55,882 nucleotides of DNA from the IMG/VR virus record IMGVR_UViG_3300045988_066911, positions 1-55,882 of that record. The stretch is one strand, 5' to 3'. Under the pieces are notes generated by a model. The model ran no database searches. It saw only the letters and a program-made list of their open reading frames with translations, and was not told where the DNA came from. This document shows, piece by piece, positions 11,591 to 27,997 of this stretch (the first letter of the stretch is position 1; the number at the start of each line of letters is the position of its first letter). Origin of the DNA: a virus. The position numbers and the translations under genes are program-made.

Positions 11591-12955
11591 ATGGAATGTG
11601 TTGCATACATGCGTGTCTCGACAGAAAAACAGGCAGAAGAAGGAAACGGACTTGAAAGCCAAAAGCGAGACATAGAATTGTATTGTAGAAAAAACGAATT
11701 GATTATTTCTGATTGGTACATTGATGACGGATATACCGGTGCTAATATGAATAGGCCGGAGTTGCAAAGGCTAATAAACGATTGCGGCAGAAAACGTGTG
11801 AAATGTGTTGTCGCATTCAAACTTGATAGATTGTCAAGAAGTATGGTTGACGGAATATACATGATTGAAAGAGTTTTTCAACCCAACAACGTGCAATTTA
11901 AGTGCGTTCACGATTCAATATCTTATGACAGTCCGATGGAGCAGGCATATACTCAAATGATGGCTGTATTTGCACAGCTTGATAAGAATACTATGATGCT
12001 TCGTATGCGTGGAGGAATGCTGGAACGTGTCAAACAAGGGTATTGGATGGGTGGAGGGAATACGCCTTATTGTTATACATACAGCAAAGAAAAAGGCATA
12101 TTGATACCAATTCCGGAACGAGCAGAACAAGCGAACAAGGCTATTGATTTGTTTATCGCCGGAAATTCCGATGTAGCGATTCAAAGAATTTTAGGATATA
12201 CAAGCGAATTGGTTGTAAGAAGCATATTGACAGGTGTTGTAAACATAGGGATGATTCCGTATAAAGGGAACATATACCAAGGACTTCACGAACCTATTTT
12301 TGATAAAGATAAGTTTGAGATGGCACAGCAAATAAGAAAATCAAGAAGAAGCAAAAAATCTTATTGCCAAAACCTTACTCCCAATATGCTTACAGGTCTG
12401 TGCTATTGTGGAGTTTGCGGTTGCAAGATGCGTTATCAAAAATGGACGAATGGAGTTAGAAAGATTTATTGCTGCTCACGGAATAAGGATTTGTACTATC
12501 TTCCGAACTTTAACAACGATTGCGATAACTCTATAGAATGGGCGGATAATATCGAGAATATTGTTGAATCGGAAATGTTGAAAATATCTGTAAATCTGTC
12601 AAAATATAAGCCAAAAGAAAAAGAAAACAAGATAGACATAATGCAGTCGCAGTTAGATAAGGAAAAATCAAAATTGAAACGGCTGTATGAATTATACGCC
12701 GACGGAAACGATACAGTCTTAGATATGATAAAAGATCAGGAATCAAAAGTAAAAAACCTCGACGATTCAATCAAGGAAGAACAAAAGTCCGGAGACAACA
12801 ATCCGAAAAAGCAATTTGTTTACGAGAATATTAAAAAACTTGCCGATGTTTGGGACGACATCGACAAGCCAGCTAAAAACAAGATATTAAAGACTATAAT
12901 AGACAAGATAATTATAGTCAACGGAAATGTGGAAATTCAATTAAAGAATTTTTAG
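11591..12955 (+). CDS. large serine recombinase (phage integrase)
   Basis: N-terminal resolvase catalytic domain (AYMRVSTEKQ...LDRLSRS), recombinase domain, zinc-ribbon CxxC...C and C-terminal coiled coil; 454 aa. Confidence 0.9.
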   Translation: MECVAYMRVSTEKQAEEGNGLESQKRDIELYCRKNELIISDWYIDDGYTGANMNRPELQRLINDCGRKRVKCVVAFKLDRLSRSMVDGIYMIERVFQPNNVQFKCVHDSISYDSPMEQAYTQMMAVFAQLDKNTMMLRMRGGMLERVKQGYWMGGGNTPYCYTYSKEKGILIPIPERAEQANKAIDLFIAGNSDVAIQRILGYTSELVVRSILTGVVNIGMIPYKGNIYQGLHEPIFDKDKFEMAQQIRKSRRSKKSYCQNLTPNMLTGLCYCGVCGCKMRYQKWTNGVRKIYCCSRNKDLYYLPNFNNDCDNSIEWADNIENIVESEMLKISVNLSKYKPKEKENKIDIMQSQLDKEKSKLKRLYELYADGNDTVLDMIKDQESKVKNLDDSIKEEQKSGDNNPKKQFVYENIKKLADVWDDIDKPAKNKILKTIIDKIIIVNGNVEIQLKNF

Positions 12956-13780: not shown

Positions 13781-14011
13781 ATGATGAATCAAGGAATTAT
13801 GCAGGCAATAAATAAATTAAAAGCAATCAAAAATCCGCAACAGGCGGCTATGCAAAGCCTTCAAAATGCGGCAAGTCAAGGAAACCAGATGGCAAGTAGC
13901 ATTTTGCAAAATATTCAATCCGGCAATATGGCTGGAGTGGAGCAAACGCTTAATAACTTTATGGGCGAAAATGGAATCAGCATGAACGACATAAATCAAA
14001 TGTTTAGATAA
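13781..14011 (+). CDS. Gln/Asn/Met-rich small protein
   Basis: 76-aa ORF; GGTGG upstream. Confidence 0.55.
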   Translation: MMNQGIMQAINKLKAIKNPQQAAMQSLQNAASQGNQMASSILQNIQSGNMAGVEQTLNNFMGENGISMNDINQMFR

Positions 14012-14026
14012 ATCTAGTACATATTA

Positions 14027-14060
14027 GGGTTTTGTCCGGACAGAGTAAAAACCAAGGTTC
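14027..14060. promoter_or_regulatory. composite dyad element, copy 3 (GGTTTT-GTCCGGAC-AGAGTA-AAAACC-AA-GGTT)
   Basis: TTGTCCGGACA at 14031-14041. The flanks GGTTTT and AAAACC are complementary. An AACCAAGGTT dyad follows. Confidence 0.6.
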
Positions 14061-14095
14061 CCTATTTGTAAATAAACAAATGGAGGTAAACTAAT

Positions 14096-14911
14096 ATGTT
14101 TAGTAACGGAGTAAGCCTTGCCGACATTGCGGCAGTAACAGGCAACAACAGAGACAATGATGGTATGTGGGGCAATGGCGCATGGTGGATTGTCATTCTT
14201 CTTATCTTCGGTTGGGGCGGTTTTGGCAACAACGGATGGGGAAATGGAAATGGAATGGGTTCTACAGCCGCCGCTTATACAGACAGCGCAATTCAGCGTG
14301 GATTCGACAATCAGGCGGTAATTTCAAAGCTTGACGGAATCACAAACGGTCTGTGCGATGGATTCTATGCTGTAAACAACAGTATGCTTACAGGATTTAA
14401 CGGAATCAACACTAATATCATGCAGACAGGCTATGGAATCCAGCAGGCAATCAACGCTGACACAATCGCAAATATGCAGAACACAAATGCATTGCAGGCA
14501 CAGCTTGCAAACTGTTGCTGTGAAACTCGTGAAGCTATTCAGGGCGTTAACTACAATATGGCAACCAACACTTGCGCATTGCAGAACACAATGAATAGCA
14601 ACACAAGAGACATCATCGACAGCCAGCAGGCAGGCACAAGAGCGATTCTCGACTATCTGTGCCAGGATAAGATTGCAACATTACAGGCTGAGAACAGCGA
14701 TCTTAGACAAGCTGCTTCGCAGGATAGACAGAATGCACTTCTGACTACTGCAATGACAGCACAGACAAGCCAAATTCTTAACGCTGTAAGACCGACACCG
14801 GTCCCGGCTTATCCGGCCGCTTCGCCTTATGGACTTGGTAACTGGTCTCCGCAGGTGTTGGCAAATGGCTATAACACAGGTTGTTGCTGCAATACAGGTT
14901 GCGGATGCTAA
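14096..14911 (+). CDS. membrane-anchored Gly/Trp/Asn-rich, Gln/Asn-rich protein with Cys clusters
   Basis: GGAGG RBS. Contains a hydrophobic segment (AWWIVILLIFGWGGF), CCCETREA, and the C-terminal NTGCCCNTGCGC. Confidence 0.7.
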   Translation: MFSNGVSLADIAAVTGNNRDNDGMWGNGAWWIVILLIFGWGGFGNNGWGNGNGMGSTAAAYTDSAIQRGFDNQAVISKLDGITNGLCDGFYAVNNSMLTGFNGINTNIMQTGYGIQQAINADTIANMQNTNALQAQLANCCCETREAIQGVNYNMATNTCALQNTMNSNTRDIIDSQQAGTRAILDYLCQDKIATLQAENSDLRQAASQDRQNALLTTAMTAQTSQILNAVRPTPVPAYPAASPYGLGNWSPQVLANGYNTGCCCNTGCGC

Positions 14912-14985
14912 TTACAACAAAATAATTGAGTATCTTAATCGAGTTTAACTCGATTATGTCTGCTATGCAGTATTACTTATAAACC

Positions 14986-15017
14986 AAGGGCAGACTATAA
15001 TGTTTGCCCTTTATTTT
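14986..15017 (+). terminator. intrinsic terminator
   Basis: AAGGGCA-12 nt-TGCCCTT followed by TATTTTAT. An 8-bp hairpin (AATCGAGT/ACTCGATT) at 14937-14955 precedes it. Confidence 0.55.
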
Positions 15018-15039
15018 ATGGATAGGAAGGTATAACAAC

Positions 15040-15252
15040 ATGGACGAAATCAAAGAGAAATTTATCGAAGCGATCAAGAAGATTGATTTTGATAAACTTA
15101 GTGTAAATGAGCTTAAAACGGTTTCTGAAATAACAGAAACAATGGATAAACTTTCAAGAAAAGACTATATGGAAACCTTGGTTGAAACCCTTAGATCGGA
15201 TAATAGTGGTTTTGCAGTCAATGTTCCAAAATCAATAAGCGAATTGAAGTAA
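15040..15252 (+). CDS. hypothetical protein
   Basis: AGGAAGG RBS 9 nt upstream of ATG 15040, preferred over track start 15004. Confidence 0.55.
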   Translation: MDEIKEKFIEAIKKIDFDKLSVNELKTVSEITETMDKLSRKDYMETLVETLRSDNSGFAVNVPKSISELK

Positions 15253-15266
15253 GGAGGAATATTATT

Positions 15267-15689
15267 ATGGCAGAATTTACAGGAATTGCATTACAAACAG
15301 TTGCCGCCGGAGAAGATGTCGCTTTTACAGAAACACCGGTATGTGGTAGCAAGTGCATTGTTCATAGACAGGGAAGCGGCATTGTCAAGTTGAGAGGAAT
15401 CACAAATCAATGCAGAGCAAGATTCCTTGCATCGTATTCCGGAAACATTCAGATTCCGACTGGTGGTACAGTTGAAGCTATCTCACTTGCGCTTGCGGTA
15501 GATGGCGAGCCTTTGCAATCAACAAGAATGGTTGTAACCCCGGCAGCGGTTGAAAATTTATTTAATGTTTCGGCGCAAGCATATATCGACGTTCCTTGCG
15601 GATGTTGCAGTACGGTAGCGGTGCAAAATACATCTACACAGGCTATTGAGGTTCAGAACAGTAATTTAATTGTTGTTCGTGAAGCGTAG
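15267..15689 (+). CDS. beta-rich protein, possibly C1q/TNF-like (BclA C-terminal-domain-like)
   Basis: AAGGAGG RBS. Alternating hydrophobic pattern and length resemble BclA-type C-terminal domains. This is by-eye pattern recognition only. Confidence 0.3.
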   Translation: MAEFTGIALQTVAAGEDVAFTETPVCGSKCIVHRQGSGIVKLRGITNQCRARFLASYSGNIQIPTGGTVEAISLALAVDGEPLQSTRMVVTPAAVENLFNVSAQAYIDVPCGCCSTVAVQNTSTQAIEVQNSNLIVVREA

Positions 15690-15701
15690 GAGGTGATCTG
15701 T

Positions 15702-16343
15702 ATGCATGAGTTTGCAAAGAAAATTATGGAATGCGTAAAAACGAACGCTGAATCTATCGGTCTTGACAATTTCAGCGGTCAAAGCCTTGACGACTTAAAG
15801 GATTGGACGGAGATTGCAAAAAACATTGTCTGCTATGACAAAGACTACAAAATTGTGGAAGCAATGAAAAAGTCAGAAGATAATGAGGATATTATGCGTA
15901 TGCTTGAACAGTACGAAGATTATCCGGAACGCAGATTCTACGATCACTATAGATATGCAGATGGAAGATTCGCACCGAAAGGACGTGGAACGTATCAGCG
16001 TGGGTATAGTGAGCCGTATTACCACATGACACCGGAAATGTATCGTGATATGGATAGAGATTCGCGTGGCAGAATGTATTACACGGAAACAAACATGAAC
16101 GATGGTGGAACAAGTAATTCGCGCATGAGCGAGAGTAATTACGACCGCGCAAAACGTAATTACACGGAAACAAAAGAAATGCACCGCGCAAATACGCCAC
16201 AGGACAAGGAAGCAAAGATGCGTGAGCTTGAAAAGTACATGAAGGAGCTTTCGGCAGACATTACAGATTTAATGTCCGGTATGTCACAGGAAGAAATGAA
16301 CATGGCAAAGTCAAAACTTACGACACTTGTAAGCAAGATGTAA
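15702..16343 (+). CDS. Tyr/Arg/Asp/Met-rich low-complexity protein
   Basis: TAGGAGG RBS 8 nt upstream of ATG 15702. Central segment reads RFYDHYRYADGRFAPKGRGTYQRGYSEPYYHMTPEMYRDMDRDSRGRMYY. Confidence 0.6.
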   Translation: MHEFAKKIMECVKTNAESIGLDNFSGQSLDDLKDWTEIAKNIVCYDKDYKIVEAMKKSEDNEDIMRMLEQYEDYPERRFYDHYRYADGRFAPKGRGTYQRGYSEPYYHMTPEMYRDMDRDSRGRMYYTETNMNDGGTSNSRMSESNYDRAKRNYTETKEMHRANTPQDKEAKMRELEKYMKELSADITDLMSGMSQEEMNMAKSKLTTLVSKM

Positions 16344-16396
16344 TTTACACAACAGGCTATGGGTGTAATGCTCATAGCCTTATTTGAGGTATAAAC

Positions 16397-16723
16397 ATGG
16401 TATTTACAATCAATGGGGAAAATTGGATATTGCAATTTGTACGTCCGAATAGTGAAAAATTGTGCCGGTCGGATGGCGTATATACGTTGGGCGTTACCGA
16501 CAATAATACCAAGACGGTTAGCATTGCAAGAGGTATGTCTGATTATATGACAAACAAGGTGCTTTGCCATGAATTAGTGCATTGCTATTCGTTCTCTTAT
16601 GATTGCCATATTGATATGCCGACAGAAGAGATAATCGCTGATTTTATGTCGCTGTATGGCAGAGATATTATATACCTTGCTGATGATATTTTACAAAATG
16701 TATTGGAGATAAGATATGGATAA
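16397..16723 (+). CDS. putative zinc metallopeptidase (HExxH)
   Basis: HELVH motif in a small protein with a W.L.FV N-terminus, typical of phage SprT/ImmA-like peptidase folds. Confidence 0.5.
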   Translation: MVFTINGENWILQFVRPNSEKLCRSDGVYTLGVTDNNTKTVSIARGMSDYMTNKVLCHELVHCYSFSYDCHIDMPTEEIIADFMSLYGRDIIYLADDILQNVLEIRYG

Positions 16724-16871
16724 AATAGATGAAATGCTTAAATATGTTCGCCGGACAAACCCGGAAATGACACGTGATAAGTTGATAGAAGAGTTGGGAA
16801 AATGCGATTATTCTGCAAAATCTTTAATATTTGGATTTCAAAATGTGTCGGATGGGTCTGCGAGAATTTAA
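16716..16871 (+). CDS. hypothetical 51-aa protein
   Basis: ATG overlaps the upstream stop; read manually. Confidence 0.4.
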   Translation: MDKIDEMLKYVRRTNPEMTRDKLIEELGKCDYSAKSLIFGFQNVSDGSARI

Positions 16872-17075
16872 TATCCCCCTATGTTATAGGAAATTGCCAC
16901 GACCAAAGAAAAATAATTTTCAGAATTTTTTCAAAAAAATTTCGATTTTCTAAATTTTAGTCCAGCAGAATTTGAACGCCCCTATGTTTCCTAAATATTC
17001 CCACGACCATCAAAAAATTTTTTCACAGATTTTGGCCGGAAATTTCACGATTTCACAATTTCAATGCCTGTTTTT
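16872..17075. repeat. two tandem imperfect direct repeats of about 105 bp
   Basis: CCCCTATGTT..CCACGACCA..AAAA..TTTTCA..GA..TTTT...AAATTTC.CGATTT occurs at about 16873-16960 and again at about 16979-17072. The tract is AT-rich and has no ORF. Confidence 0.8.
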
Positions 17076-17076
17076 T

Positions 17077-17284
17077 GATCTCCACCTGTCGGCTGATCTT
17101 GGGCGATCTATTCCGGGGCCTGTCCGTGCTCGTGCTGATCGTTTGCGCTGATCTTTTGCGGATCGCTGGCATATTGCAAGAATTCCAGATATACCGCTGC
17201 GCCGGTTTGGGTGTCCTGATCTTCCGACATGCTCCGGCGATGGAATCCGGGCGCACTTCTCCGGGTGTCTGTCTTGCTGATCTT
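17077..17284. other. GC-rich, GATC-dense ORF-poor block with an iterated GCTGATCTT motif
   Basis: Eight GATC sites in about 205 bp. (G/C)CTGATC(T/G)T occurs at 17092, 17134, 17147, 17215 and 17276. A hand-counted 60-nt line is 60% G+C, which looks well above the rest of the genome. Confidence 0.8.
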
Positions 17285-17431
17285 GTCCGGGCGTGGTTGC
17301 AGAATTTCAAAGCGCACAAATTAAAGGCTATCACATGCGAATATTTGCACCTGTGAACGCGTAGAACGCCCACAGAGCCACGCAAACCATACAAAGCATA
17401 TAAACGCACGCTTATAGATATAATTAAGGAT

Positions 17432-17460
17432 ATAATATGCCTATTGTTTGGAATTGTCAA
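17432..17460 (-). promoter_or_regulatory. sigma-70-type promoter reading leftward into the GC-rich block
   Basis: On the minus strand: TTGACA (17455-17460), 17-nt spacer, TATTAT (17432-17437). Confidence 0.55.
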
Positions 17461-17464
17461 GGCA

Positions 17465-17490
17465 CGAAAAGAAGCCGGATAACTCCGGCT
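17465..17490 (-). terminator. intrinsic terminator of the 55-aa minus-strand gene
   Basis: Minus strand: AGCCGGA-GTTA-TCCGGCT followed by TCTTTTCG. Confidence 0.65.
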
Positions 17491-17656
17491 ATTGCTTTTC
17501 ATATTCTTTTATTGATTCATCAACGCGATCAAATGCGCGCATGATGTCCGCGTTCGCTTTGCTTCCGCTTATTTCTCCGCGTTTCAAAGCATCCAAGGAT
17601 GCTATAATATCCTTGTATTGCTTGTTTGCTTCTTTTAGCAATTTATCGCATTTCAT
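17489..17656 (-). CDS. hypothetical 55-aa helical protein
   Basis: Read manually: AAGGGGG RBS 8 nt upstream of the ATG; MKCDKLLKEANKQYKDIIASLDALKRGE... The + strand track ORF 17448..17678 is its antisense shadow. Confidence 0.55.
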   Translation of the reverse strand: MKCDKLLKEANKQYKDIIASLDALKRGEISGSKANADIMRAFDRVDESIKEYEKQ

Positions 17657-17694
17657 AATAAAACCCCCTTTATTTTAATATAACACGCCCAAAA

Positions 17695-17730
17695 AAGAGC
17701 GAAAACAACCGCCCGGAATCGAACCGGGCG
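17695..17730 (-). terminator. intrinsic terminator (7-bp GC stem with a T-arm-like TTCGATT loop)
   Basis: Minus strand: CGCCCGG-TTCGATT-CCGGGCG followed by GTTGTTTTCGCTCTTTTTT. Confidence 0.6.
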
Positions 17731-17746
17731 CAATGCTCCAAGGTTG

Positions 17747-17926
17747 CTATATTGCTTTTTTATATTCGTTTTCGCTGGCGTATTTTTCCAGGTTTTCCAA
17801 CGTGTCAAAAAATTTTACCGTGAATCCAACCGCCTTTGTAATTCTTTCTATCGAATATCTGCCAAAATCCCACAAACAAGCATAAAAAATCATGTTTCCT
17901 TTTTTCAATAAAAACAGTTTTTTCAT
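17747..17926 (-). CDS. hypothetical protein (59 aa)
   Basis: GGAGGTG RBS precedes MKKLFLLKK. The earlier track start lies inside that RBS. Confidence 0.55.
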   Translation of the reverse strand: MKKLFLLKKGNMIFYACLWDFGRYSIERITKAVGFTVKFFDTLENLEKYASENEYKKAI

Positions 17927-18016
17927 AGAAAACACCTCCATATTTCAATTATTCCCAATTCCGGGAAAAACCGCCGCCGGTATCGCTCCGGCGTGCATCC
18001 TCTGCGGCGGTTAGCT

Positions 18017-18286
18017 TTACAGATCTTTCTTTCTCTTTACATCCTTTACACTGTGCGGATATTCTCGCATCATCTGGAATGCTTTGAGGTTGTCGGCTGG
18101 TACTTCGTAGCCGTTAGCGCGGAGAAGATCGGCGGCAGTTTGTAAATATGCGTTTTCATAGCCGTATTTAATGCCGCTTTTTAACTCTTCACCGTTTACA
18201 ATAACAGTTGCCGTGTGATATGTGTTACCGTATGACTTCTGAAACCATCTTTTTCCAATAACTTCCAATGTGTTGATTTTTTTCAT
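18017..18286 (-). CDS. hypothetical protein (GKRWFQKSYGNTYH family)
   Basis: 89-aa ORF. I recognise the N-terminal RWF..(S/V).GNTYH motif from a recurrent small phage protein family of unknown function. Confidence 0.65.
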   Translation of the reverse strand: MKKINTLEVIGKRWFQKSYGNTYHTATVIVNGEELKSGIKYGYENAYLQTAADLLRANGYEVPADNLKAFQMMREYPHSVKDVKRKKDL

Positions 18287-18380
18287 AATCTTGTACCATT
18301 TCGGGAATTGTGCTATAATTCCCTTACCTTTCTTTTTTGATTGGTGGCGGCTGTGCTTGGTAGGCGTGCCGCCTTTTTTA

Positions 18381-18450
18381 GTCTGCCATCATCAGAGCCG
18401 GGAGACCATCCCACGGCTGACGCTCCAAGGTCGGAGCGTTTCGGCTAATC
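18381..18450 (-). ncRNA. candidate type II hammerhead ribozyme
   Basis: Minus strand: GCC-GAAA-[CGCUCC GACCUU GGAGCG]-UC / [AGCCG...CGGCU]-CUGAUGA-U-GGC. All core nucleotides are present (CUGAUGA, GAAA, A15.1-U16.1, GUC cleavage triplet). Stems I and III are closed by loops. Stem II is open and short (GGC/GCC) with one extra U after A9. Confidence 0.6.
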
Positions 18451-18573
18451 AATAAATTTTTCTAACTGTTCATCCGTCATTCTTTCAACTTCTTTTCTTG
18501 CTGTGATCGGTTCAATTCCTAATTCTCCGACCATGAAAGCAAATACCATATTTTCTAAAATAGATCTTTCCAT
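18445..18573 (-). CDS. hypothetical 42-aa protein
   Basis: Read manually: AAGGAGG RBS; MERSILENMVFAF... Its UAG stop lies in the 5' strand of hammerhead stem II. Confidence 0.45.
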   Translation of the reverse strand: MERSILENMVFAFMVGELGIEPITARKEVERMTDEQLEKFID

Positions 18574-18576
18574 GTC

Positions 18577-18690
18577 TTATGCCTCCTTTACTATGAAATC
18601 CTTTTCAGCTCTGCGCGCCTGCGCTGGTGTCATTGTTACGACTCCTATAATTGCCTGTGTTGTTTTGTCTGTGATCTTGTAATTTTTCAT
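18577..18690 (-). CDS. hypothetical 37-aa protein
   Basis: Read manually: AAAGGAAG RBS; MKNYKITDKTTQAIIGVV... Confidence 0.4.
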   Translation of the reverse strand: MKNYKITDKTTQAIIGVVTMTPAQARRAEKDFIVKEA

Positions 18691-18738
18691 ATTTGATTTC
18701 TTCCTTTCGTTTGGTGCTTGGTTTCTTAACTTGGTTAT

Positions 18739-18767
18739 AGTATAACGCTATCGTTATATTATTACAA
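18739..18767 (-). promoter_or_regulatory. promoter of the minus-strand small-gene operon
   Basis: Minus strand: TTGTAA-17 nt-TATACT. The spacer TAATATAACGATAGCGT is identical to the spacer of the + strand promoter at 19211. Confidence 0.6.
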
Positions 18768-18944
18768 GATGGAATAATGCATAAATATATAACGCTATCA
18801 TTATATATTCATTGTGCAATATGTATAAAGCTATCTTTATATGCTGTTTTCTTTCCATATTATATAGTGGCGTTATAATAACGATATCTTTATAAAAGCA
18901 TTGACATATATATATAGTAGCGTTATAATAACGATATCATTATA
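18741..18944. promoter_or_regulatory. array of five 18-bp palindromic operators (consensus TATAACG-N4-CGTTATA); a sixth lies at 19220-19237
   Basis: Sites at 18741-58, 18788-805, 18824-41, 18877-94 and 18927-44. There is also a direct repeat of about 35-50 bp (18861-18910 versus 18911-18960). Confidence 0.75.
18901..18929 (+). promoter_or_regulatory. consensus sigma-70 promoter for the RHH gene
   Basis: TTGACA (18901-06), 17 nt, TATAAT (18924-29). An operator overlaps the -10 box. Confidence 0.75.
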
Positions 18945-18962
18945 TAGGAAGGTGGCGTTATT

Positions 18963-19193
18963 ATGGCAACAAAGGCGCAAGCAAAAGCAACCGCTAAATA
19001 TGAAAAAAACGCATATTTCAAGGCTCTTGTAAGATTCAAAAAAGAAGACGAAGAGCGGATCAGAGCGGCAGCAGGAGAAAGCCTGAACGGATTTATAGTT
19101 AAATGTGTGCTTGACCACTTAGAAGATCAGCAAAAAATCACAGAAGATCAAGCGGATCAAGGCGATCCGGGGAAATGTCCGTTTATGGATTAA
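18963..19193 (+). CDS. ribbon-helix-helix (Arc/CopG-like) DNA-binding protein with acidic DQ-rich tail
   Basis: AKATAKYEKNAYFKALVRFKKEDEERIRAAAGESLNGFIVKCV is a typical RHH pattern; RBS AGGAAGGTGG. Confidence 0.65.
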   Translation: MATKAQAKATAKYEKNAYFKALVRFKKEDEERIRAAAGESLNGFIVKCVLDHLEDQQKITEDQADQGDPGKCPFMD

Positions 19194-19210
19194 AAAAGAT
19201 GGAAAAACTA

Positions 19211-19239
19211 TTGACATAATATAACGATAGCGTTATAAT
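19211..19239 (+). promoter_or_regulatory. consensus sigma-70 promoter with embedded operator
   Basis: TTGACA (19211-16), 17 nt, TATAAT (19234-39). The perfect palindrome TATAACGATAGCGTTATA lies at 19220-37. Confidence 0.75.
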
Positions 19240-19287
19240 AAGATCAAACAAAAACGAAAGGACGCCAGATGGCGAAGGGTGGAAAGT

Positions 19288-19485
19288 ATGAGAAACGATA
19301 TAACAAGAGATTTTGGCGGAGCAGAAGAAAAAGGACTTGCAGTATATTACAACGACGAAACAAGCGAATTTGAAATTGAGGCACCGACGGAAATTGTATC
19401 TATTTACGACAAGCAGAACGAAGCCGGAGACGGAAGCGACGGAACAGCAGCGGCAGAAGTCCAGAAATTTATTTATGAATTTTAG
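19288..19485 (+). CDS. hypothetical acidic protein
   Basis: GGTGGAAAG precedes ATG 19288. Confidence 0.5.
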   Translation: MRNDITRDFGGAEEKGLAVYYNDETSEFEIEAPTEIVSIYDKQNEAGDGSDGTAAAEVQKFIYEF

Positions 19486-19496
19486 GGGGTGCGTAT

Positions 19497-19946
19497 ATGC
19501 TAATTCATGCTATGTTTGTGTATAACAAGAAAACATTGATAGATAAGATTTTGTATAATGATATATTTAATTATTTAGATGATCAGGGCGAGCATATAAG
19601 CAAAGAAAAGCTATACGAACACGAAAAAGAGAATTGCCCGGATTTGGAGATTGATAATATCACTTATGATTTCGCTTTAAATCTCCGGCAGGCTCCTTGT
19701 TACAATTCGCATATATACGTTACAAGATCGCTGGCGGTCAGTTATATACCGTACTGTATTATGCCGATGCAACGGCGATTATATAAAAGCCGTGAAAACG
19801 GATCAGGCGGCGCGAATATTTATAGTATATCTTCTAAATATGTGCATGATTTTTCCCCGGAAGAGTTCAAAGATCACTATATAGAATCGGACAGATGCGA
19901 CATGATAACATTTAGGCAGGCGCTATTAGACCAATGGCACATATAA
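19497..19946 (+). CDS. hypothetical protein
   Basis: GGGGG RBS; 149 aa; no motif recognised. Confidence 0.6.
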   Translation: MLIHAMFVYNKKTLIDKILYNDIFNYLDDQGEHISKEKLYEHEKENCPDLEIDNITYDFALNLRQAPCYNSHIYVTRSLAVSYIPYCIMPMQRRLYKSRENGSGGANIYSISSKYVHDFSPEEFKDHYIESDRCDMITFRQALLDQWHI

Positions 19947-20100
19947 CACAAAAGGCACCAAACAAGGCGCCTTTTCCAATGTGGTTAGATTGTGTAAATA
20001 AATTGAATAGATTTATTCAACATTCCAATATGGTTACATCGTGTTTATAATATACACTTATATTATTTATATGTCAATGATTAAATTATAATATATTATA

Positions 20101-20130
20101 TTGACACTATGCATTATATAGCGCTATAAT
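20101..20130 (+). promoter_or_regulatory. near-consensus promoter in an ORF-free AT-rich region
   Basis: TTGACA (20101-06), 18 nt, TATAAT (20125-30). Confidence 0.55.
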
Positions 20131-20136
20131 ATACAT

Positions 20137-20220
20137 GTTTTATATTAAAGGGTTATAGTTCCCTTTTATATTCTTGGTATGTTACAACGACAGGAAAGCG
20201 GCTTTCATAGTCGCTTTTTT
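20137..20220 (+). ncRNA. candidate small RNA of about 85 nt (two hairpins, each followed by a T-run)
   Basis: AAAGGG-8 nt-CCCTTTT at 20147-20167 and AAAGCG-11 nt-CGCTTTTTT at 20195-20220. No ORF longer than 7 codons. Confidence 0.35.
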
Positions 20221-20287
20221 GTTGTATGCCTGATAGGTATATAAAATCCATATATACAAGATATAGAGCCTATACACCCATAGATTA

Positions 20288-20316
20288 TTGACATATTCAA
20301 GATATAGTGGTATAGT
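20288..20316 (+). promoter_or_regulatory. promoter upstream of a structured leader
   Basis: TTGACA (20288-93), 17 nt, TATAGT (20311-16). Confidence 0.6.
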
Positions 20317-20415
20317 ATAGCCAATTTATAAAGCTTGTATATCTGCTATGTACAGATGCGCCCGGAGTACATAAGCAGCCAAGCCAAGGCAAGAGGGCGC
20401 AAACAGGAAACTTTC

Positions 20416-20445
20416 GCCGGTTAGATCAGTCTAGCCGGCTTTTTT
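20416..20445 (+). terminator. strong intrinsic terminator about 30 nt upstream of the TerS-like start codon
   Basis: GCCGGTTAGA-TCAG-TCTAGCCGGC (10-bp stem) followed by TTTTTT. Confidence 0.75.
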
Positions 20446-20477
20446 ATTTGCCAAAGATCAGGAAGGAAGGCGCGAAC

Positions 20478-21140
20478 ATGGAACAGGTCGAACAGGTACA
20501 GGGCATAGAAACCTTTGAAAATGATATAGCTATGTATTTGCGTATCTTTTGCGAAGAACAAGAGATTGAGGACATGCGCGCCGCTTCTCAGTCTGTATAT
20601 AACGCATGCCTTAGATATATCCAACGCCATGTATTTAGAGATAAAGATATATTAAGAGATAAGAGCAATATATATAATATAAATAATAATATTATGAGTA
20701 ACTATAATAGATATAATTATGATCTATTAAATGATATATGTGATTATTATATATATATGTCTATGTTATATGATAAAGAAGTATCTATTATGGGTTTTAG
20801 TAATCTTACTGGTATAGATAATGATACAGTGACTACATGGAATAAAGCGGATCGGCTAAGCTCCTCGAGTATGAGGATATACAAAAAACTTTGTGAAAAT
20901 CGCGAAGAATCGCTTTCCAATAAGCTTGTAACGGGTAACAAGAACCCTGTGGGCGTAATAGCTGTATTAAATCGTCAATTCGGCTGGGCTTCTCCATATA
21001 CGAGCGATTCCAACAGGCAACAGCAACCGCTTACAGCTGCACAGCTTCCAAGATTAGATATACAACCACAAGATATAGCACAGATAGAAGAAAAACCACA
21101 AGATATAGTGATTGATAATGTAAAAGCAGAGTGTACTTAG
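20478..21140 (+). CDS. putative terminase small subunit
   Basis: AGGAAGGAAGG RBS. The C-terminal NKNPVGVIAVLNRQFGWASP motif resembles the conserved C-terminal region of TerS proteins. The central segment is AT-rich and low-complexity. Confidence 0.4.
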   Translation: MEQVEQVQGIETFENDIAMYLRIFCEEQEIEDMRAASQSVYNACLRYIQRHVFRDKDILRDKSNIYNINNNIMSNYNRYNYDLLNDICDYYIYMSMLYDKEVSIMGFSNLTGIDNDTVTTWNKADRLSSSSMRIYKKLCENREESLSNKLVTGNKNPVGVIAVLNRQFGWASPYTSDSNRQQQPLTAAQLPRLDIQPQDIAQIEEKPQDIVIDNVKAECT

Positions 21141-21441
21141 TTTTTACACCCGATTTTATTCAATTATTTGTGCAATTTGACGATAGAAAAACGGCAGTAG
21201 ATCAGCTCCAACAGATCAGCCGGCAGGGGGGGGTGGGGGTTTGACAGGACCAGGAAAACACCTCTACTAAGCACCCCAAACATTTTTCAAAACAAAAAGC
21301 CCTATTATATATAATATAAATATATATAACCATTACACATACACATATAATAAATAATTAAATTATATAAATGTAATGCATATATGATTGTTATATATAA
21401 GGGTTTTACAGATAACGGATATATAGTTATGTGAGGTATAT

Positions 21442-21720
21442 ATGGGATATTTAAGTAAAATATCTGAAAAATGCACAAAATGTCCTTATGTAGATAACTG
21501 TAAGGATAAAAGAATGGAAGCTTGTGCATATATGGACAACTTAGAAAAGGAATTGAATAAAGCAACAAGCGAATTGATTAGTCAAAATCCGATGATGGAT
21601 GCTGCAATGCCTATTTCTCGCGAACGAGTTTTAAGCAATTTAAGTCAATTCGTGTATAAGGACGAATTAGAAAAGGCATTATATAGTCAATTATACGATT
21701 TCCTTAGAATCGCAACGTAA
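21442..21720 (+). CDS. hypothetical protein
   Basis: GAGG RBS; 92 aa. Confidence 0.55.
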   Translation: MGYLSKISEKCTKCPYVDNCKDKRMEACAYMDNLEKELNKATSELISQNPMMDAAMPISRERVLSNLSQFVYKDELEKALYSQLYDFLRIAT

Positions 21721-21818
21721 AAGGAGTGAATAACCATGAATGAGGGCTACGGAACAGCATTTTGATTTCTAAAAATTTTTCAAAAAATAAAAAGGGTTGA
21801 TTTAATGGGAGATTAAAG

Positions 21819-22235
21819 ATGAAATTATTTTCTAAGCGTAAAAATAAAAATTCAGAAATTGAAAATCGAGAAGTACGAGACAACAAAGAGACTGAACCTC
21901 GTACAACTATTATTCACTCACAACGCATTTGCAAGGGACTTCTTTACAGTACAGAAGATTCAGAGTTAGTTGTTTGTTGGAAACATTCGGATTCTTGTGA
22001 AGAAGAAAAATCTGCATTATTCAGAACCAAAAACGGAAGATGGTTTCGTTGTTTACAAAAAACAAAGAAATATGTGAGCTTCGACCTTGATATATGCAAA
22101 TACATTGTTTATGAAAAAACGATTAGTTATTCAAATATTATTCCAATCAACGAAGATTATGCAAAAAGAACAGTCGGCGATTATGACGTTCAGAAGTATC
22201 TGGAGCTGTGGGGAGACGAGGTAGAAGAAGCATGA
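21819..22235 (+). CDS. hypothetical protein
   Basis: GGAG RBS; 138 aa. Confidence 0.55.
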   Translation: MKLFSKRKNKNSEIENREVRDNKETEPRTTIIHSQRICKGLLYSTEDSELVVCWKHSDSCEEEKSALFRTKNGRWFRCLQKTKKYVSFDLDICKYIVYEKTISYSNIIPINEDYAKRTVGDYDVQKYLELWGDEVEEA

Positions 22236-22417
22236 TAACATATCGAGACATACGCCGGCTCCGTTCTACAGGATATAAGGTGTGCAGAATCACAGGCCGG
22301 ATTTACCTGGTATCTCTGTATTCGAGGCAGGAATACGATGGAAACCAGGTATCAGCGATTGCAAAGCGGATTTTATCTCACGTATACGCAATACGGATAG
22401 TTAAGAGGTGGATTTAA
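22232..22417 (+). CDS. hypothetical basic protein (61 aa)
   Basis: ATGA start/stop overlap with the upstream gene. Confidence 0.45.
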   Translation: MITYRDIRRLRSTGYKVCRITGRIYLVSLYSRQEYDGNQVSAIAKRILSHVYAIRIVKRWI

Positions 22418-22662
22418 TGAGCGAATGTGGAGTAATAACAAGAACTGTAACAGATAATGTCAATCATCCGTCGCATTATGAGACAGGAAAATTTGAGTGC
22501 ATCGACGTAATGATTGAAACACAAGGAAAAGAAGCTGTTATGGACTTCTGTATCTGTAACGCATTTAAGTACATATACAGGCATAACAACAAAAATGGCA
22601 TTGAAGATGTCAAAAAAGCAAAGTGGTATCTGGATAAATATATCGAATTGTCAGAAAAATAA
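22417..22662 (+). CDS. DUF3310-like protein
   Basis: HPSHY...ECIDV...NAFKYIYRHNNKNGIEDVKKAKWYL is the characteristic DUF3310 pattern. Confidence 0.7.
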   Translation: MSECGVITRTVTDNVNHPSHYETGKFECIDVMIETQGKEAVMDFCICNAFKYIYRHNNKNGIEDVKKAKWYLDKYIELSEK

Positions 22663-22680
22663 AAAAGCCGCGATTGCGAC

Positions 22681-22833
22681 TTAATTATTTTCAACATAAG
22701 ATTTCAGAATGTGTATCACGAGATTAGAAAGAGATCGACCTTGCTTTTTTGCAATTGCTTCCAGATCAACACGTAATTCACTTGGAACACGAACTGTTAT
22801 TTGAGCATCATTTTGCTTTTGCTTTTTAGCCAT
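22681..22833 (-). CDS. ribbon-helix-helix (CopG/Arc-like) regulator (50 aa)
   Basis: MAKKQKQNDAQITVRVPSELRVDLEAIAKKQGRSLSNLVIHIL; GGAGGTG RBS; divergent from the serine recombinase gene. Confidence 0.65.
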   Translation of the reverse strand: MAKKQKQNDAQITVRVPSELRVDLEAIAKKQGRSLSNLVIHILKSYVENN

Positions 22834-22883
22834 ATATTGCACCTCCATAAGCATAATATAACATAAACGGATAAATATTGCAA

Positions 22884-22922
22884 TGCAAAGCAATAAAAAG
22901 CACTGCAAAGCATTGCAAAGCA
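22884..22922. promoter_or_regulatory. three direct TGCAAAGCA repeats in the divergent intergenic region, with an extended -10 (TGGTATAAT) at 22932-22940
   Basis: TGCAAAGCA occurs at 22884, 22904 and 22914. This is a likely operator set for the adjacent RHH protein. Confidence 0.5.
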
Positions 22923-22975
22923 TTACATTTTATGGTATAATACCCATATCAATTAAAGATAAGGGGTGTGTATTT

Positions 22976-23569
22976 ATGATTATAGGCTATGCGAGAGTGT
23001 CAACCAAGGAACAGAACCTTGCAAGACAGTTAGAAGCACTGAAAAATGCTGGATGTGAAAAGATTTACATGGATAAGTTATCCGGCAAGGACTTTGAAAG
23101 ACCTGATTATCAGAAGATGATTTCCAACTTAACAAGCGATGATGTTCTCATTATTCTGTCTATCGACCGGCTCGGTAGAAACTATGACGAGATTATGGAT
23201 GAATGGCGAAGAATCACTAAGACGATCAAAGCAGACATTAAGGTTCTCGATATGCCGCTACTTGACACGACTATCGGAAGAGCTGGCGACTTAACAGACA
23301 CATTTGTGGCAGATCTTGTTCTGCAGATCTTGTCATATGTCGCTAATCTCGAACGTGAGCATATAAGAGAGAGACAGGCAGAAGGGATTGCCATCGCGAA
23401 GAAAGAAGGCAAATACAAGGGCGGTACAAAGAAAACTGTAGATAGTGAATTGCTTGATAGCAATTTGATTCTTTACCGGTCCGGTAAGATCACCAAGTCT
23501 GCATTTGCGAAGAATATCGGTGTATCACGACCGACTTTAGACAGGATTTTGTCAGAATACGCTGCATAA
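22976..23569 (+). CDS. small serine recombinase (resolvase/invertase family)
   Basis: MIIGYARVSTKEQNLARQ...DRLGRN catalytic domain plus a C-terminal HTH; 197 aa. ATG 22976 is preferred over track start 22883. Confidence 0.85.
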   Translation: MIIGYARVSTKEQNLARQLEALKNAGCEKIYMDKLSGKDFERPDYQKMISNLTSDDVLIILSIDRLGRNYDEIMDEWRRITKTIKADIKVLDMPLLDTTIGRAGDLTDTFVADLVLQILSYVANLEREHIRERQAEGIAIAKKEGKYKGGTKKTVDSELLDSNLILYRSGKITKSAFAKNIGVSRPTLDRILSEYAA

Positions 23570-23578
23570 GCGTTTTTA

Positions 23579-23650
23579 TGCTCTATCGCCAAAAGGTAAG
23601 GCACAGGACTTTGACTCCTGCATTTGTTGGTTCGAATCCAACTAGGGCAG
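23579..23650 (+). tRNA. tRNA-Gln (anticodon UUG)
   Basis: Hand-folded cloverleaf. Acceptor TGCTCTA/TAGGGCA (one G-U pair, U1-A72); D arm GCC/GGC; anticodon stem CAGGA/TCCTG with loop CTTTGAC; T arm GTTGG-TTCGAAT-CCAAC. No encoded CCA. Confidence 0.8.
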
Positions 23651-23840
23651 TTTGGATTCTTAATGTTTTTCATTTTGGAATTCTCCTTTCGTAACCCACT
23701 AGCGGAAAGCTGATTAAAGAGCCGTCACAAGGCTCGGTGGGTTTTGCCGGTTGAATACCGGCACGTATAAACCCCTTTTATCCCATGGGGAACACACATT
23801 TCTCCTTTGCGCATTTCCCATCCCCAAGAGGATGCGCACA

Positions 23841-23924
23841 CGAAGCATAGATCAATGGCAGATCATACGGTTTTACACACCCCACGTTTTCCCGTAAATT
23901 CCGGTTCGATTCCGGGTGCTTCGT
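23841..23924 (+). tRNA. tRNA-like cloverleaf with a 21-nt anticodon loop (non-canonical; function unknown)
   Basis: Perfect 7-bp acceptor CGAAGCA/TGCTTCG; D arm GATC-AATGGCA-GATC; T arm TCCGG-TTCGATT-CCGGG. The 5-bp anticodon stem TACGG/CCGTA encloses TTTTACACACCCCACGTTTTC. Confidence 0.5.
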
Positions 23925-24117
23925 ATCTCACAACCTGCATACCCACGAATACGTTTTGACGCAACAAACTATTTTCTTATCGGGTCGTGAGTGTAATATC
24001 TTGTCTGATTCTATGTCACTGATTCGCGGTGCGTGACTAACGAACAGTCTTGGATTTTGCGCGGTGTTCACGCGTGCGCCACACAATTTCGACTAACCCG
24101 CGGCGAAAAAAGTCGCT

Positions 24118-24190
24118 TCGACATGTAGTGTAATTGGCTAGCATAATTCGCATATTGCGATATAGGTGGAGTTCGAGTCTTCCGTGTCGA
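24118..24190 (+). tRNA. tRNA-like element of normal length (73 nt) with an aberrant anticodon arm
   Basis: Acceptor TCGACAT/GTGTCGA (7 bp, one G-U); T arm GGAG-TTCGAGT-CTTC. The anticodon region folds as TCGCA-TAT-TGCGA (triloop). As a 7-nt loop it reads CATATTG, with A at position 33. Confidence 0.4.
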
Positions 24191-24191
24191 T

Positions 24192-24214
24192 TCCCTTGAA
24201 AAGGGACATTTTTT
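24192..24214 (+). terminator. intrinsic terminator directly after the tRNA-like element
   Basis: TCCCTT-GAA-AAGGGA followed by CATTTTTTG. Confidence 0.6.
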
Positions 24215-24283
24215 GTTCTCCCAATGTCGTGGAATCAAACCATGCACATTTTCGGATGTGCATACCGTTACAGGCGGTATTTT

Positions 24284-24368
24284 GCCGATATGGGATAATG
24301 GTATTCCAATAGCTTGCTAAGCTATCCAACATATAAATGTTGTTCGTGTTCGATTCACGATGTCGGCG
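24284..24368 (+). tRNA. tRNA-Ser (anticodon GCU), class II
   Basis: Acceptor GCCGATA/TGTCGGC with G73; U8 G9; D arm GGA..TCC; anticodon stem ATAGC/GCTAT with loop TTGCTAA; long variable arm CAACAT-ATAA-ATGTTG; T arm TCGTG-TTCGATT-CACGA. Confidence 0.85.
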
Positions 24369-24442
24369 TTTTTACATGTAAACCAAAAAGGGAAATAAGT
24401 TGTTGGTTATCTTTGTTTCTCTAAAACCATCTACATGTGAGT

Positions 24443-24644
24443 TGATGCGTGGCGGAATAGGTAAACGCTAATCAATGGTTAAGAAAAAGGTGTGCTATAA
24501 GAATTGCTATTAACAAGTCTGGTAAAAAGCTGTAAGCAATTACACCAATAAATCCGTTAGAAAATAAAAATCCATTTTTCCCTATTCGTAGGTGCAGACT
24601 AACTAACGGAATTTCATGTGTGGTGCAAATCCACACCGCATCAA
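24443..24644 (+). ncRNA. 202-nt tRNA-scaffold RNA: acceptor, D arm and T arm retained, anticodon arm replaced by two long hairpins
   Basis: Acceptor TGATGCG/CGCATCA (7 bp); D arm GCG(G)-AATAGGTAA-(A)CGC; T arm GTGTGG-TGCAAAT-CCACAC. Internal hairpins are GGTGT..AATTGC/GCAATT-ACACC (24489-24546) and AATCCGTTAG/CTAACGG-A-ATT (24551-24613). Confidence 0.4.
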
Positions 24645-24757
24645 GCGGTCGGGTAGTCCCGAATAAGCAGGCGTTATAGTAATCCCTGCTGAAATAAAAA
24701 AATTCCGATGCATGGCATACCAAACCGGTTACAATGCCTGCATCGGAAACCGCACAT

Positions 24758-24841
24758 TGTAGCATATCTCAATGGCAGAGTGGCGAGCGCTCGGAAAACA
24801 ACGATGAAAGCCGGATGGTGGTTCGAATCCACCTGCTACAC
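24758..24841 (+). tRNA. tRNA-like cloverleaf lacking a canonical anticodon arm
   Basis: Perfect acceptor TGTAGCA/TGCTACA; D arm CTC-AATGGCA-GAG; canonical T arm GGTGG-TTCGAAT-CCACC. I tested every register in the 36 nt between the D and T arms and found no 5-bp stem with a 7-nt loop. Confidence 0.45.
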
Positions 24842-24941
24842 TTTACAGCAAACTAGCTTGACGAAGCGAAAAGCACTTCCGCTGTGCCTGTTTGCTGGAT
24901 TTATTGTTTCAGCGGAATAATATCAAGCGGAGGTATTGATT

Positions 24942-25715: not shown

Positions 25716-25731
25716 ATGGAGGTGTATTTGT

Positions 25732-27892: not shown

Positions 27893-27997
27893 CAAAATTT
27901 TACCGGCTACAGATTGATTGTAGTCGCTACCCTAGAAAAATTATAGGCAGAGATTTCTATGGCATCTCTGCTTGAATGAGCGGAGGTGCTTTTCTTT

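Follow-up and report, generated by a model that had tools for sequence, protein, structure and literature searches.

What occupies the short spacer between two small genes on the minus strand of the virus record IMGVR_UViG_3300045988_066911, and what does it do for the transcript in which it lies? The record, analysed over its whole length of 55,882 nucleotides (nt) and referred to here as the window, is that of a temperate phage or prophage whose annotated genes lie nearly all on the plus strand. The spacer falls within a small minus-strand island, between an open reading frame (ORF) of 42 amino acids (aa) and an 89-aa gene of the phrog_6246 family, and an earlier note had proposed a type II hammerhead ribozyme at this place. 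At the level of sequence the proposal is confirmed far beyond chance, the element being a type II hammerhead at 18446-18377 on the minus strand (-).

Identification of the ribozyme

A comparison of the whole window with all 4227 Rfam families (cmscan) gives a match to Hammerhead_II (RF02276) at these positions. The match covers the model from end to end (1-66/66) and scores 64.6 bits against a gathering score of 37, with an E value of 3.5e-11; the covariance-model check that the earlier note had suggested is passed by this wide margin. A purpose-built covariance model, R1, extends the match to the complete type II hammerhead including its 3' pseudoknot tail (18448-18375 (-), 76.8 bits). The minimum-free-energy fold of the 76-nt segment 18450-18375 reproduces the three-way junction at -26.2 kcal/mol (z = -2.05 relative to shuffled sequences), and the full-length model match and the fold together bear out the proposed type II identity. 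Model R1, applied to the window at E values up to 0.001, gives a single match and no further hammerhead. Similarly, no second hammerhead and no twister, pistol or hatchet ribozyme was found in a permissive Rfam search of 14000-26000 (E up to 1) or in the gathering-score scan of the whole window.

Relatives were gathered in three ways. A blastn search with the 2 kb around the ribozyme against GenBank phages matched the ribozyme alone, in two faecal phages, Dulem virus 39 (PP511791) and MT835516. A protein-guided search with the downstream 89-aa gene gave 58 viral loci, of which 11 contain a Hammerhead_II match by Rfam and two more a match by model R1. Finally, a DNA pattern restricted to the core, in which stems I and III, the loops and the tail were left free, gave at least 120 matches in viral contigs. 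Model R1 was built from 40 diverse sequences and aligned 144 hammerheads, 130 of them distinct, from 100 loci; it recovered some hammerheads, such as those of loci L041 and L015, that the Rfam model misses at its gathering score. The alignment is fitted to the model and most of its sequences were picked for an intact core and a GCC/GGC stem II, so that the strength of the core and of stem II among the 130 distinct relatives is in part a consequence of this choice; the selecting pattern did not extend to stems I and III or the pseudoknot. Counts and percentages for the ribozyme given below refer to these 130 unless another set is named.

Architecture of the element

A base-by-base check of the minus strand from 18450 to 18375 gives GAUUAGCC-GAAA-CGCUCC-GACCUU-GGAGCG-UC↓A-GCCG-U-GGGAUGGUCUCC-CGGCU-CUGAUGA-U-GGC-AGACUAAAAA, where the arrow marks the predicted cleavage site. 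The letters read in the earlier note are reproduced exactly. Within this segment CGCUCCGACCUUGGAGCG spans GAAA to UC↓A and GCCGUGGGAUGGUCUCCCGGCU spans UC↓A to CUGAUGA.

The element begins with the 5' strand of stem II, GCC (18445-18443). Its first base, G18445, doubles as the final base of the UAG stop (18447-18445) of the 42-aa ORF (18573-18445 (-)), which overlaps the 5' edge of the ribozyme in this way. The strand is followed by the core residues G12, A13 and A14 together with A15.1 (GAAA, 18442-18439), which are present, subject to the selection described above, in 128 relatives. The stem III hairpin (18439-18420) is formed from the A15.1-U16.1 pair (A18439-U18420) and the helix CGCUCC/GGAGCG, giving 7 base pairs (bp) with a possible eighth, a G-U, and is closed by the loop GACCUU. 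Sequence, fold and the relatives, in which this stem is 96.5% paired, agree with the 7-bp helix and 6-nt loop that had been drawn before. Cleavage is predicted between C17 (18419) and A1.1 (18418) in a GUC↓A context, a position that follows from the Rfam alignment and is that proposed earlier; GUC is found in 123 relatives.

The stem I hairpin (18418-18396) consists of 5 bp, AGCCG/CGGCU, a bulged U18413 and two inner pairs, GG/CC (G18412-C18401 and G18411-C18402), and carries an 8-nt loop, GAUGGUCU. It leads directly into core residues C3 to A9, CUGAUGA (18395-18389), which are kept in 115 relatives. One extra U (18388), an insertion in the Rfam model, lies between A9 and G10.1, before the 3' strand of stem II, GGC (18387-18385), which is assigned from sequence and covariation. 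The tail continues directly with AGACUA (18384-18379), the partner of UGGUCU (18408-18403) in loop I.

All residues required of a hammerhead core (Rfam clan CL00010) are in place (C3 U4 G5 A6 N7 G8 A9, G12 A13 A14, the A15.1-U16.1 pair and a base other than G at position 17), and each core position assigned in the earlier note was located. The parts follow one another in the type II order of stem II strand, GAAA, stem III hairpin, cleavage site, stem I hairpin, CUGAUGA and stem II strand. The whole CUGAUGA/GAAA/GUC core is retained in 108 relatives. A variant core was observed in five copies (L072 5816-5885, L143 12092-12159, L119 2283-2350, L128 316-383 and L070 10078-10149), in which U4, as a rule an invariant core position, is changed to C (CCGAUGA); these have a GUC/GAC stem II without the U insertion and may represent an attenuated or inactive lineage.

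Covariation and the loop I pseudoknot

The three stems are maintained by compensatory change. Among the relatives 90.9% of the cells at paired positions hold standard pairs, compared with 66.4% in column shuffles. The covariation score is 0.612 as against 0.158 for shuffled columns; none of 500 shuffles reaches 0.612, and sliding the 3' partners by 1-3 columns leaves a score of no more than 0.098. In stem I, which is 94.6% paired, all seven pairs show double-sided changes, and in stem III six of seven do. The compensatory changes in helices I and III, on which the earlier note had let its proposal depend, are hence abundant. Stem II is 99.5% paired, a figure to which the selection for GCC/GGC contributes, and has double-sided changes in one of three pairs, the middle one (CG 101, UA 18, GC 8).

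A further helix, absent from the earlier note, joins loop I to the 3' tail. UGGUCU (18408-18403) and AGACUA (18384-18379) form a pseudoknot of six pairs, one of them a G-U, whose four central pairs are 81-98% paired and covary in the relatives; two of the central pairs occur as GC 86/CG 21/AU 20 and as CG 62/UA 45. Loop and tail change together in many combinations, such as GGUCU/AGACC, UGACC/GGUCA, GCCC/GGGC, UAGCC/GGCUA, UGGCU/AGCCA and UUGCCU/AGGCAA. In a permutation test the longest loop-tail helix has a mean length of 5.20 bp when each loop is matched with its own tail, 4.00 ± 0.07 bp when tails are exchanged between relatives and 3.38 bp when the tail is shuffled. The tertiary contact typical of the type II class, mostly a loop I/3'-tail pseudoknot of at least 4 bp, is in this way present, and its arrangement is that of the published architecture, in which fast cleavage requires such a pseudoknot (Perreault et al., 2011; PMC3088659).

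The pseudoknot alters the description of stem I. The earlier note had drawn 5 bp, a mismatch, 3 bp and a 5-nt loop, and it shares with the Rfam alignment the inner pairs G18410-C18404 and A18409-U18405. These two pairs were rejected, as the positions are 42% paired in the relatives whereas the pseudoknot covaries; stem I is therefore 5 bp, a bulge and 2 bp with an 8-nt loop. The outer 5 bp of the earlier helix stand unchanged.

In core, in three covarying helices, in type II topology, in the pseudoknot and in model score the element conforms to Hammerhead_II at every point that can be tested from sequence, and catalysis is predicted.

The extra U and the short stem II

Two features had been listed earlier as deviations, a stem II of 3 bp and the extra U after A9. 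Both are present, and neither is peculiar to this copy. They are common traits of a sub-family, the extra U together with GCC/GGC being found in at least 93 distinct relatives. The U is present in all 11 hammerheads found by Rfam in the protein-guided set. Among 40 hammerheads found by model R1 without the selecting pattern, an inserted base is present in seven and missing from 33. The variant is abundant, which argues that the extra U is tolerated. A comparable case is the plus-strand hammerhead of chrysanthemum chlorotic mottle viroid, which has an extra A between A9 and G10.1 and is still active. Like the window copy it has one added base at the junction of core and stem II; unlike it, the base is A and not U, and the ribozyme is of type III and serves rolling-circle processing.

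No explicit statement on an extra U after A9 was found in the principal account of the class (PMC3088659), nor was an assayed example met in the literature consulted. That account does describe type II hammerheads with a stem II as short as 1-2 bp, in which lengthening of the stem lowers activity (PMC3088659). A stem II of 3 bp is normal for the type II class.

The conserved leader and the exchange of promoter for ribozyme

The ribozyme is followed by a leader of ~90 nt (18377-18287 (-)) and then by the 89-aa gene (18286-18017 (-)). The coordinates agree with the placement proposed earlier, between the stop codon of the 42-aa ORF, within a stem II strand, and a structured leader of the 89-aa gene. 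This leader is conserved in ~40 loci, whether they have a hammerhead or none, and consists of an A-run, a first hairpin, an invariant linker, ACCAAUCAAAAAAGAAAGGUA, and a second hairpin. Hairpin 1 (GGCGGC...GCCGCC, 18373-18346), which comes after the A-run past the ribozyme tail, is conserved and shows compensatory stem changes in ~24 distinct loci with the 89-aa gene. Hairpin 2 (GGGAAUU-AUAGCAC-AAUUCCC, 18323-18303) has a Shine-Dalgarno-like GAAAGGU on both sides. When it was checked sequence by sequence, at least six different complementary stems, some of them with G-U pairs on the minus strand, were found to enclose a conserved UUAUAAC loop. An alignment of the leader with MAFFT followed by RNAalifold recovered hairpin 1 alone, hairpin 2 being missed because it was misaligned. 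The leader of the phrog_6246 gene is not in Rfam, and its conserved hairpins suggest a candidate new cis-regulatory RNA, possibly a translational operator.

On the opposite strand the same region has a second aspect. Read on the plus strand, 18344-18377 is a textbook intrinsic terminator, formed from hairpin 1 and the A-run (GGCGGC...GCCGCC then TTTTTT), and the same is seen in L010 and L021. This terminator may stop antisense transcription before the ribozyme and promoter region.

What precedes the leader differs between phages. In L010 and the similar loci L011, L012, L015, L018 and L019 a promoter, TTGACA-17-TATATT (11/12), lies directly before it. The window and L003-L008 have two small ORFs and a hammerhead in place of this promoter, and the 42-aa ORF itself is also found in L003, L004 and L007. 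A cut at 18419/18418 would start the mRNA ~45 nt upstream of the start of the primary transcript in the promoter-bearing relatives, ahead of the same leader. Because the promoter occupies the same position in these relatives, the ribozyme probably replaces it in defining a monocistronic 89-aa mRNA, and this exchange is the most direct evidence for a processing model. The 89-aa gene would thus be expressible either from a promoter of its own or from a 5' end generated by the ribozyme.

Placement between cistrons in related phages

The position of the hammerhead between two coding regions recurs throughout the relatives. For 121 of the 130, the 150 nt upstream contain the end of an ORF of 35 aa or more, and in 67 the upstream stop codon falls at model positions 1-3 or 2-4, where it abuts or overlaps stem II; the distribution has a sharp peak there. 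From the model end to the next start codon with a Shine-Dalgarno motif the median distance is 17 nt. Median lengths of the flanking ORFs are 87 aa upstream and 82 aa downstream. The functional scan of the neighbours covered the downstream ORFs, and no functional association with these emerged for 115 hammerheads. The first downstream ORFs are mostly of unknown function, the others including helix-turn-helix (HTH) regulators, Mu-type transposases, methyltransferases, anti-repressors, one MazF-like and one AcrIC5-like protein. A fixed gene partner is rejected for the 89-aa gene as well, which has a hammerhead directly upstream in six of the 58 loci, downstream in seven and none within 3 kb in 45.

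Arrays of hammerheads on one strand with single small genes between them were also observed, with seven copies in L065 5900-9600 (-), eight in L090 160-5200 (-) and six in L144 350-4200 (+). Dulem virus 39 (L001 804-3081) has three, two on the plus strand and one on the minus. The median spacing of hammerheads within related phage contigs is 482 nt; the window has a single hammerhead and no tandem array. Published prophage hammerheads flank individual genes or small groups of genes that are not constant (PMC3088659), and it has been suggested that long phage transcripts are processed into gene-length mRNAs (PMC3088659; PMC6765202). By its placement the element is a modular intercistronic unit, in agreement with this picture.

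Small annotation errors arise because these ribozymes go unrecognised. An annotated 30-aa coding sequence in GenBank PP511791 (L001 2579-2668) overlaps the hammerhead at L001 2528-2595, and gene callers often extend the N-terminus of 89-aa homologues (P0001, P0006, P0022, P0025 and others) to 124-150 aa, through leader and ribozyme.

Close variants of the ribozyme are found in assemblies of Lachnospiraceae, Acetatifactor and other Clostridia, and the viral relatives come largely from gut metagenomes. On these grounds the host of the phage is probably a gut Firmicute, with a member of the Lachnospiraceae the probable case. A megablast search with 20 kb of the structural region gave no GenBank phage match.

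Proposed function and its alternatives

The minus-strand genes around the ribozyme are arranged as a putative short operon. A promoter-like sequence, TTTATA-18-TATAAT (18829-18800 (-), 10/12), which could drive the operon, precedes a 37-aa ORF (18690-18577 (-)), the first of the operon, and the 42-aa ORF; a second minus-strand promoter candidate lies at 18767-18739. Downstream, a terminator-like hairpin with a T-run (17993-17975 (-)) is found 24 nt past the stop of the 89-aa gene. Both promoters and the terminator are consensus matches.

We hold it probable that the element is a functional type II hammerhead that makes a monocistronic 89-aa mRNA from the polycistronic transcript of this operon. 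Transcription would run from the promoter region near 18800 through the 37-aa ORF, the 42-aa ORF, the ribozyme, the ~90-nt leader and the 89-aa gene to the terminator near 17975. Once transcribed, the ~70-nt RNA would fold into the three-way junction, with the pseudoknot between loop I and the 3' tail holding stems I and II parallel, and the 2'-OH of C18419 would attack the neighbouring phosphate. The upstream fragment, with the two small ORFs, would have the stem III hairpin and a 2',3'-cyclic phosphate at its end. The downstream fragment, of ~450 nt, would include the leader and the 89-aa gene, and its 5'-OH would lie directly at the foot of the stem I hairpin. The ribozyme would in this manner do the job of the dedicated promoter in relatives without a ribozyme, and cleavage would make each half of the operon independent of the other in stability and translation. 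Family membership, structure, covariation, the site between cistrons and the exchange with a promoter are established by the analysis; cleavage of the window copy, the transcript boundaries and any effect on stability or translation we infer.

Several points weigh against this reading. The extra U between A9 and G10.1 is a departure from the consensus core. The promoter and terminator assignments are consensus matches only. A hammerhead lies within 3 kb in only 13 of the 58 loci with the 89-aa gene, so that this gene can do without the ribozyme. RNase J1 can attack 5'-OH ends in Firmicutes, as in the case of glmS, and cleavage could lower rather than protect expression of the 89-aa gene. More generally, what bacterial and phage hammerheads do biologically is still described as largely elusive (PMC6765202).

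The fourth of these points can be taken further, to a ribozyme that is active with a mainly negative effect, its 5'-OH end being exposed to a host 5'-to-3' exonuclease (RNase J1) so that the 89-aa gene is lowered relative to the upstream ORFs. A Firmicute host is probable, given close variants of the ribozyme in Lachnospiraceae and Clostridia, and the glmS ribozyme works likewise according to a passage in PMC6765202 that cites Collins et al. (2007). The structure of the proposed 5' end speaks against such a fate, as A18418 is in the first base pair of a GC-rich 7-bp hairpin and leaves no single-stranded 5' tail. The absence of such a tail is generally protective against 5'-end-dependent decay. 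The promoter found at the same place in relatives also gives a similar leader, which suggests that the 5' end is a productive one, and a mainly negative effect is in our view unlikely. The position of the stop codon raises a different idea, that cleavage is gated by translation of the 42-aa ORF, with a ribosome at the stop codon sitting over stem II, the core strand GAAA and some of stem III. The RNA could then cut itself only while this ORF goes untranslated or once the ribosome has moved off, and upstream translation would decide the fate of the downstream cistron. G18445 of stem II is shared with the UAG (18447-18445), and the sharp peak of stop codons that overlap or abut the first four model positions in 67 of 130 relatives fits the same idea. 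The peak is equally explained by genome compaction and a conserved A/UA before stem II, the overlap is missing in nearly half of the relatives, and fast ribozymes may cut before the first ribosome arrives, all of which makes gating by translation decidedly improbable. As a wider form of this idea, phage type II hammerheads could be natural translation-aware cistron separators in which cleavage reports upstream translation, a speculation for which we see little likelihood. It builds on the tight succession of a stop codon over stem II, the ribozyme and a Shine-Dalgarno motif, and the promoter-equivalent 5' end of the downstream mRNA would arise through the same cleavage. If true, the output of the 89-aa gene by way of its two-hairpin leader would depend on whether the 42-aa ORF is translated.

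The extra U also bears on whether the window copy cleaves at all. It could be an impaired relic, or a structural stabiliser or insulator of the mRNA, if the extra U and the 3-bp stem II block efficient cleavage. The core does have an insertion relative to the consensus, and some natural core insertions strongly cut activity (A6a and the saltern variants; PMC3088659). Against this, all catalytic nucleotides are kept and the full core is found in 108 of 130 distinct relatives, a pattern to be expected only under selection for catalysis. The variant with the extra U is also very abundant, with at least 120 pattern matches in viral contigs, and in pseudoknotted type II hammerheads such a short stem II (1-3 bp) is the norm and even the optimum (PMC3088659), so a relic or a purely structural element appears very improbable. 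A chance resemblance in an intergenic spacer has the short length of the motif in its favour and nothing else; with the E value of 3.5e-11 for the whole window against all Rfam families, and with the element recurring with compensatory changes in more than 100 other phage contigs, its likelihood is close to nil. A cleaving hammerhead that separates the 89-aa mRNA from the upstream ORFs is the reading that we retain.

The small proteins of the island and the surrounding genome

The minus-strand island starts from an AT-rich divergent promoter region, with perfect consensus promoters on the plus strand at 18901-18929 and 19211-19239. Beyond the 89-aa gene the island continues with two further small ORFs, each followed by a terminator-like hairpin. 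The 37-, 42-, 64- and 55-aa ORFs have no match in Pfam, PHROGs or NCBIfam. For the 89-aa protein, phrog_6246, of unknown function, is the sole match in the same three databases. A database search gave 112 homologues, none with a Pfam domain, and the protein is widespread in gut phages. Its structure model (pLDDT 95.9) consists of three β-strands, two helices and a final strand, and the residues W14, Q16, G20-N21-T22-Y23-H24 and Y41-G42-Y43 are invariant. The model has no significant match in the PDB, the best being RNase H-like folds with E ~0.01 and TM <0.5.

Elsewhere the window contains a large serine integrase of 454 aa (11591-12955 (+), phrog_95, E 1.6e-99), a replication-initiation-like protein (25705-26580), a terminase (27986-29791) and a portal protein (30601-32043). 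A second serine recombinase of 228 aa, which is invertase/resolvase-like (22883-23569 (+), phrog_125, E 3e-57), lies directly upstream of a cluster of RNA genes at 23579-24914. The cluster includes tRNA-Gln(TTG) (23579-23650) and tRNA-Ser(GCT) (24283-24369), both on the plus strand, a tRNA-Val(TAC) at 23840-23925 (+) predicted by ARAGORN only and a weaker Rfam tRNA match at 24758-24841 (+, 36.6 bits). An int-alpA RNA (RF02996, 24846-24914 (+), 45.8 bits) follows, directly upstream of an HNH-endonuclease-like ORF (24936-25715).

The region 17050-17400 separates the end of the minus-strand island from the plus-strand genes; it reaches 58% GC compared with ~38% around it and contains no convincing ORF. 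Four copies of a 14-mer resembling GCTGATCTTKNGCG lie at 17092, 17134, 17147 and 17276; they could be iterons or protein-binding repeats. In addition, two imperfect copies of a motif of ~45-60 nt, GGTCGTGG-AAT...ACATAGGGG...AAATTCT, each preceded by a T/A-rich run, were seen by eye at ~16860-16915 and 16965-17030 (-); the repeat search did not report this pair at 16860-17030 as a family.

Comparison with known systems

The class, its topology, the pseudoknot, the short stem II, the prophage context and the hypothesis of polycistronic processing were all published in 2011 (PMC3088659), and the window copy leaves knowledge of hammerhead structure or distribution unchanged. Mildly new, and unsurprising to a specialist, are the tight wedging between stop codon and Shine-Dalgarno motif, the abundance of the U insertion and the exchange of promoter for ribozyme. 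For the window itself, an unannotated spacer of 70 nt becomes a defined, predicted site of RNA processing. The same gene and leader follow a promoter in some phages and a hammerhead in others, and this forms a clean natural comparison for the effects of self-cleavage on the stability and translation of an mRNA.

The bacterial and prophage members of RF02276 share with the window copy the core, the open stem II, a stem II of 2-3 bp, a pseudoknot of 4-6 bp and an intercistronic site in a prophage; the window sub-family differs from the RF02276 consensus by the one extra U between A9 and G10.1. In vitro, cleavage is fast for type II hammerheads that combine the pseudoknot with a very short stem II, and prophage hammerheads that flank single genes cleave a native polycistronic RNA of ~2 kb in vitro and also in E. 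coli (PMC3088659). In Desulfovibrio vulgaris three type II hammerheads were found to cleave by cyPhyRNA-seq in 2021 (PMC8782182). These are of the same class as the window copy, similarly lie near hypothetical and phage-like genes, and demonstrate that elements predicted in this way are cleaved in living cells. The host phylum and the sequences differ from those of the window copy, whose cleavage is predicted.

The glmS ribozyme resembles what is proposed here in that self-cleavage within an mRNA leader yields a 5'-OH end that sets the fate of the downstream coding region. It has an unrelated fold, needs GlcN6P and always serves one gene, in contrast to the window hammerhead, which has no ligand pocket and no fixed gene partner. 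RiboJ-type insulators place a self-cleaving hammerhead and a hairpin before the ribosome-binding site and so give a defined 5' end that is independent of the upstream sequence. RiboJ is an engineered type III ribozyme from a satellite RNA, whereas an insulating role for natural phage hammerheads is one that we infer; the order of hammerhead, hairpin and ribosome-binding region is common to RiboJ and to the window and its relatives.

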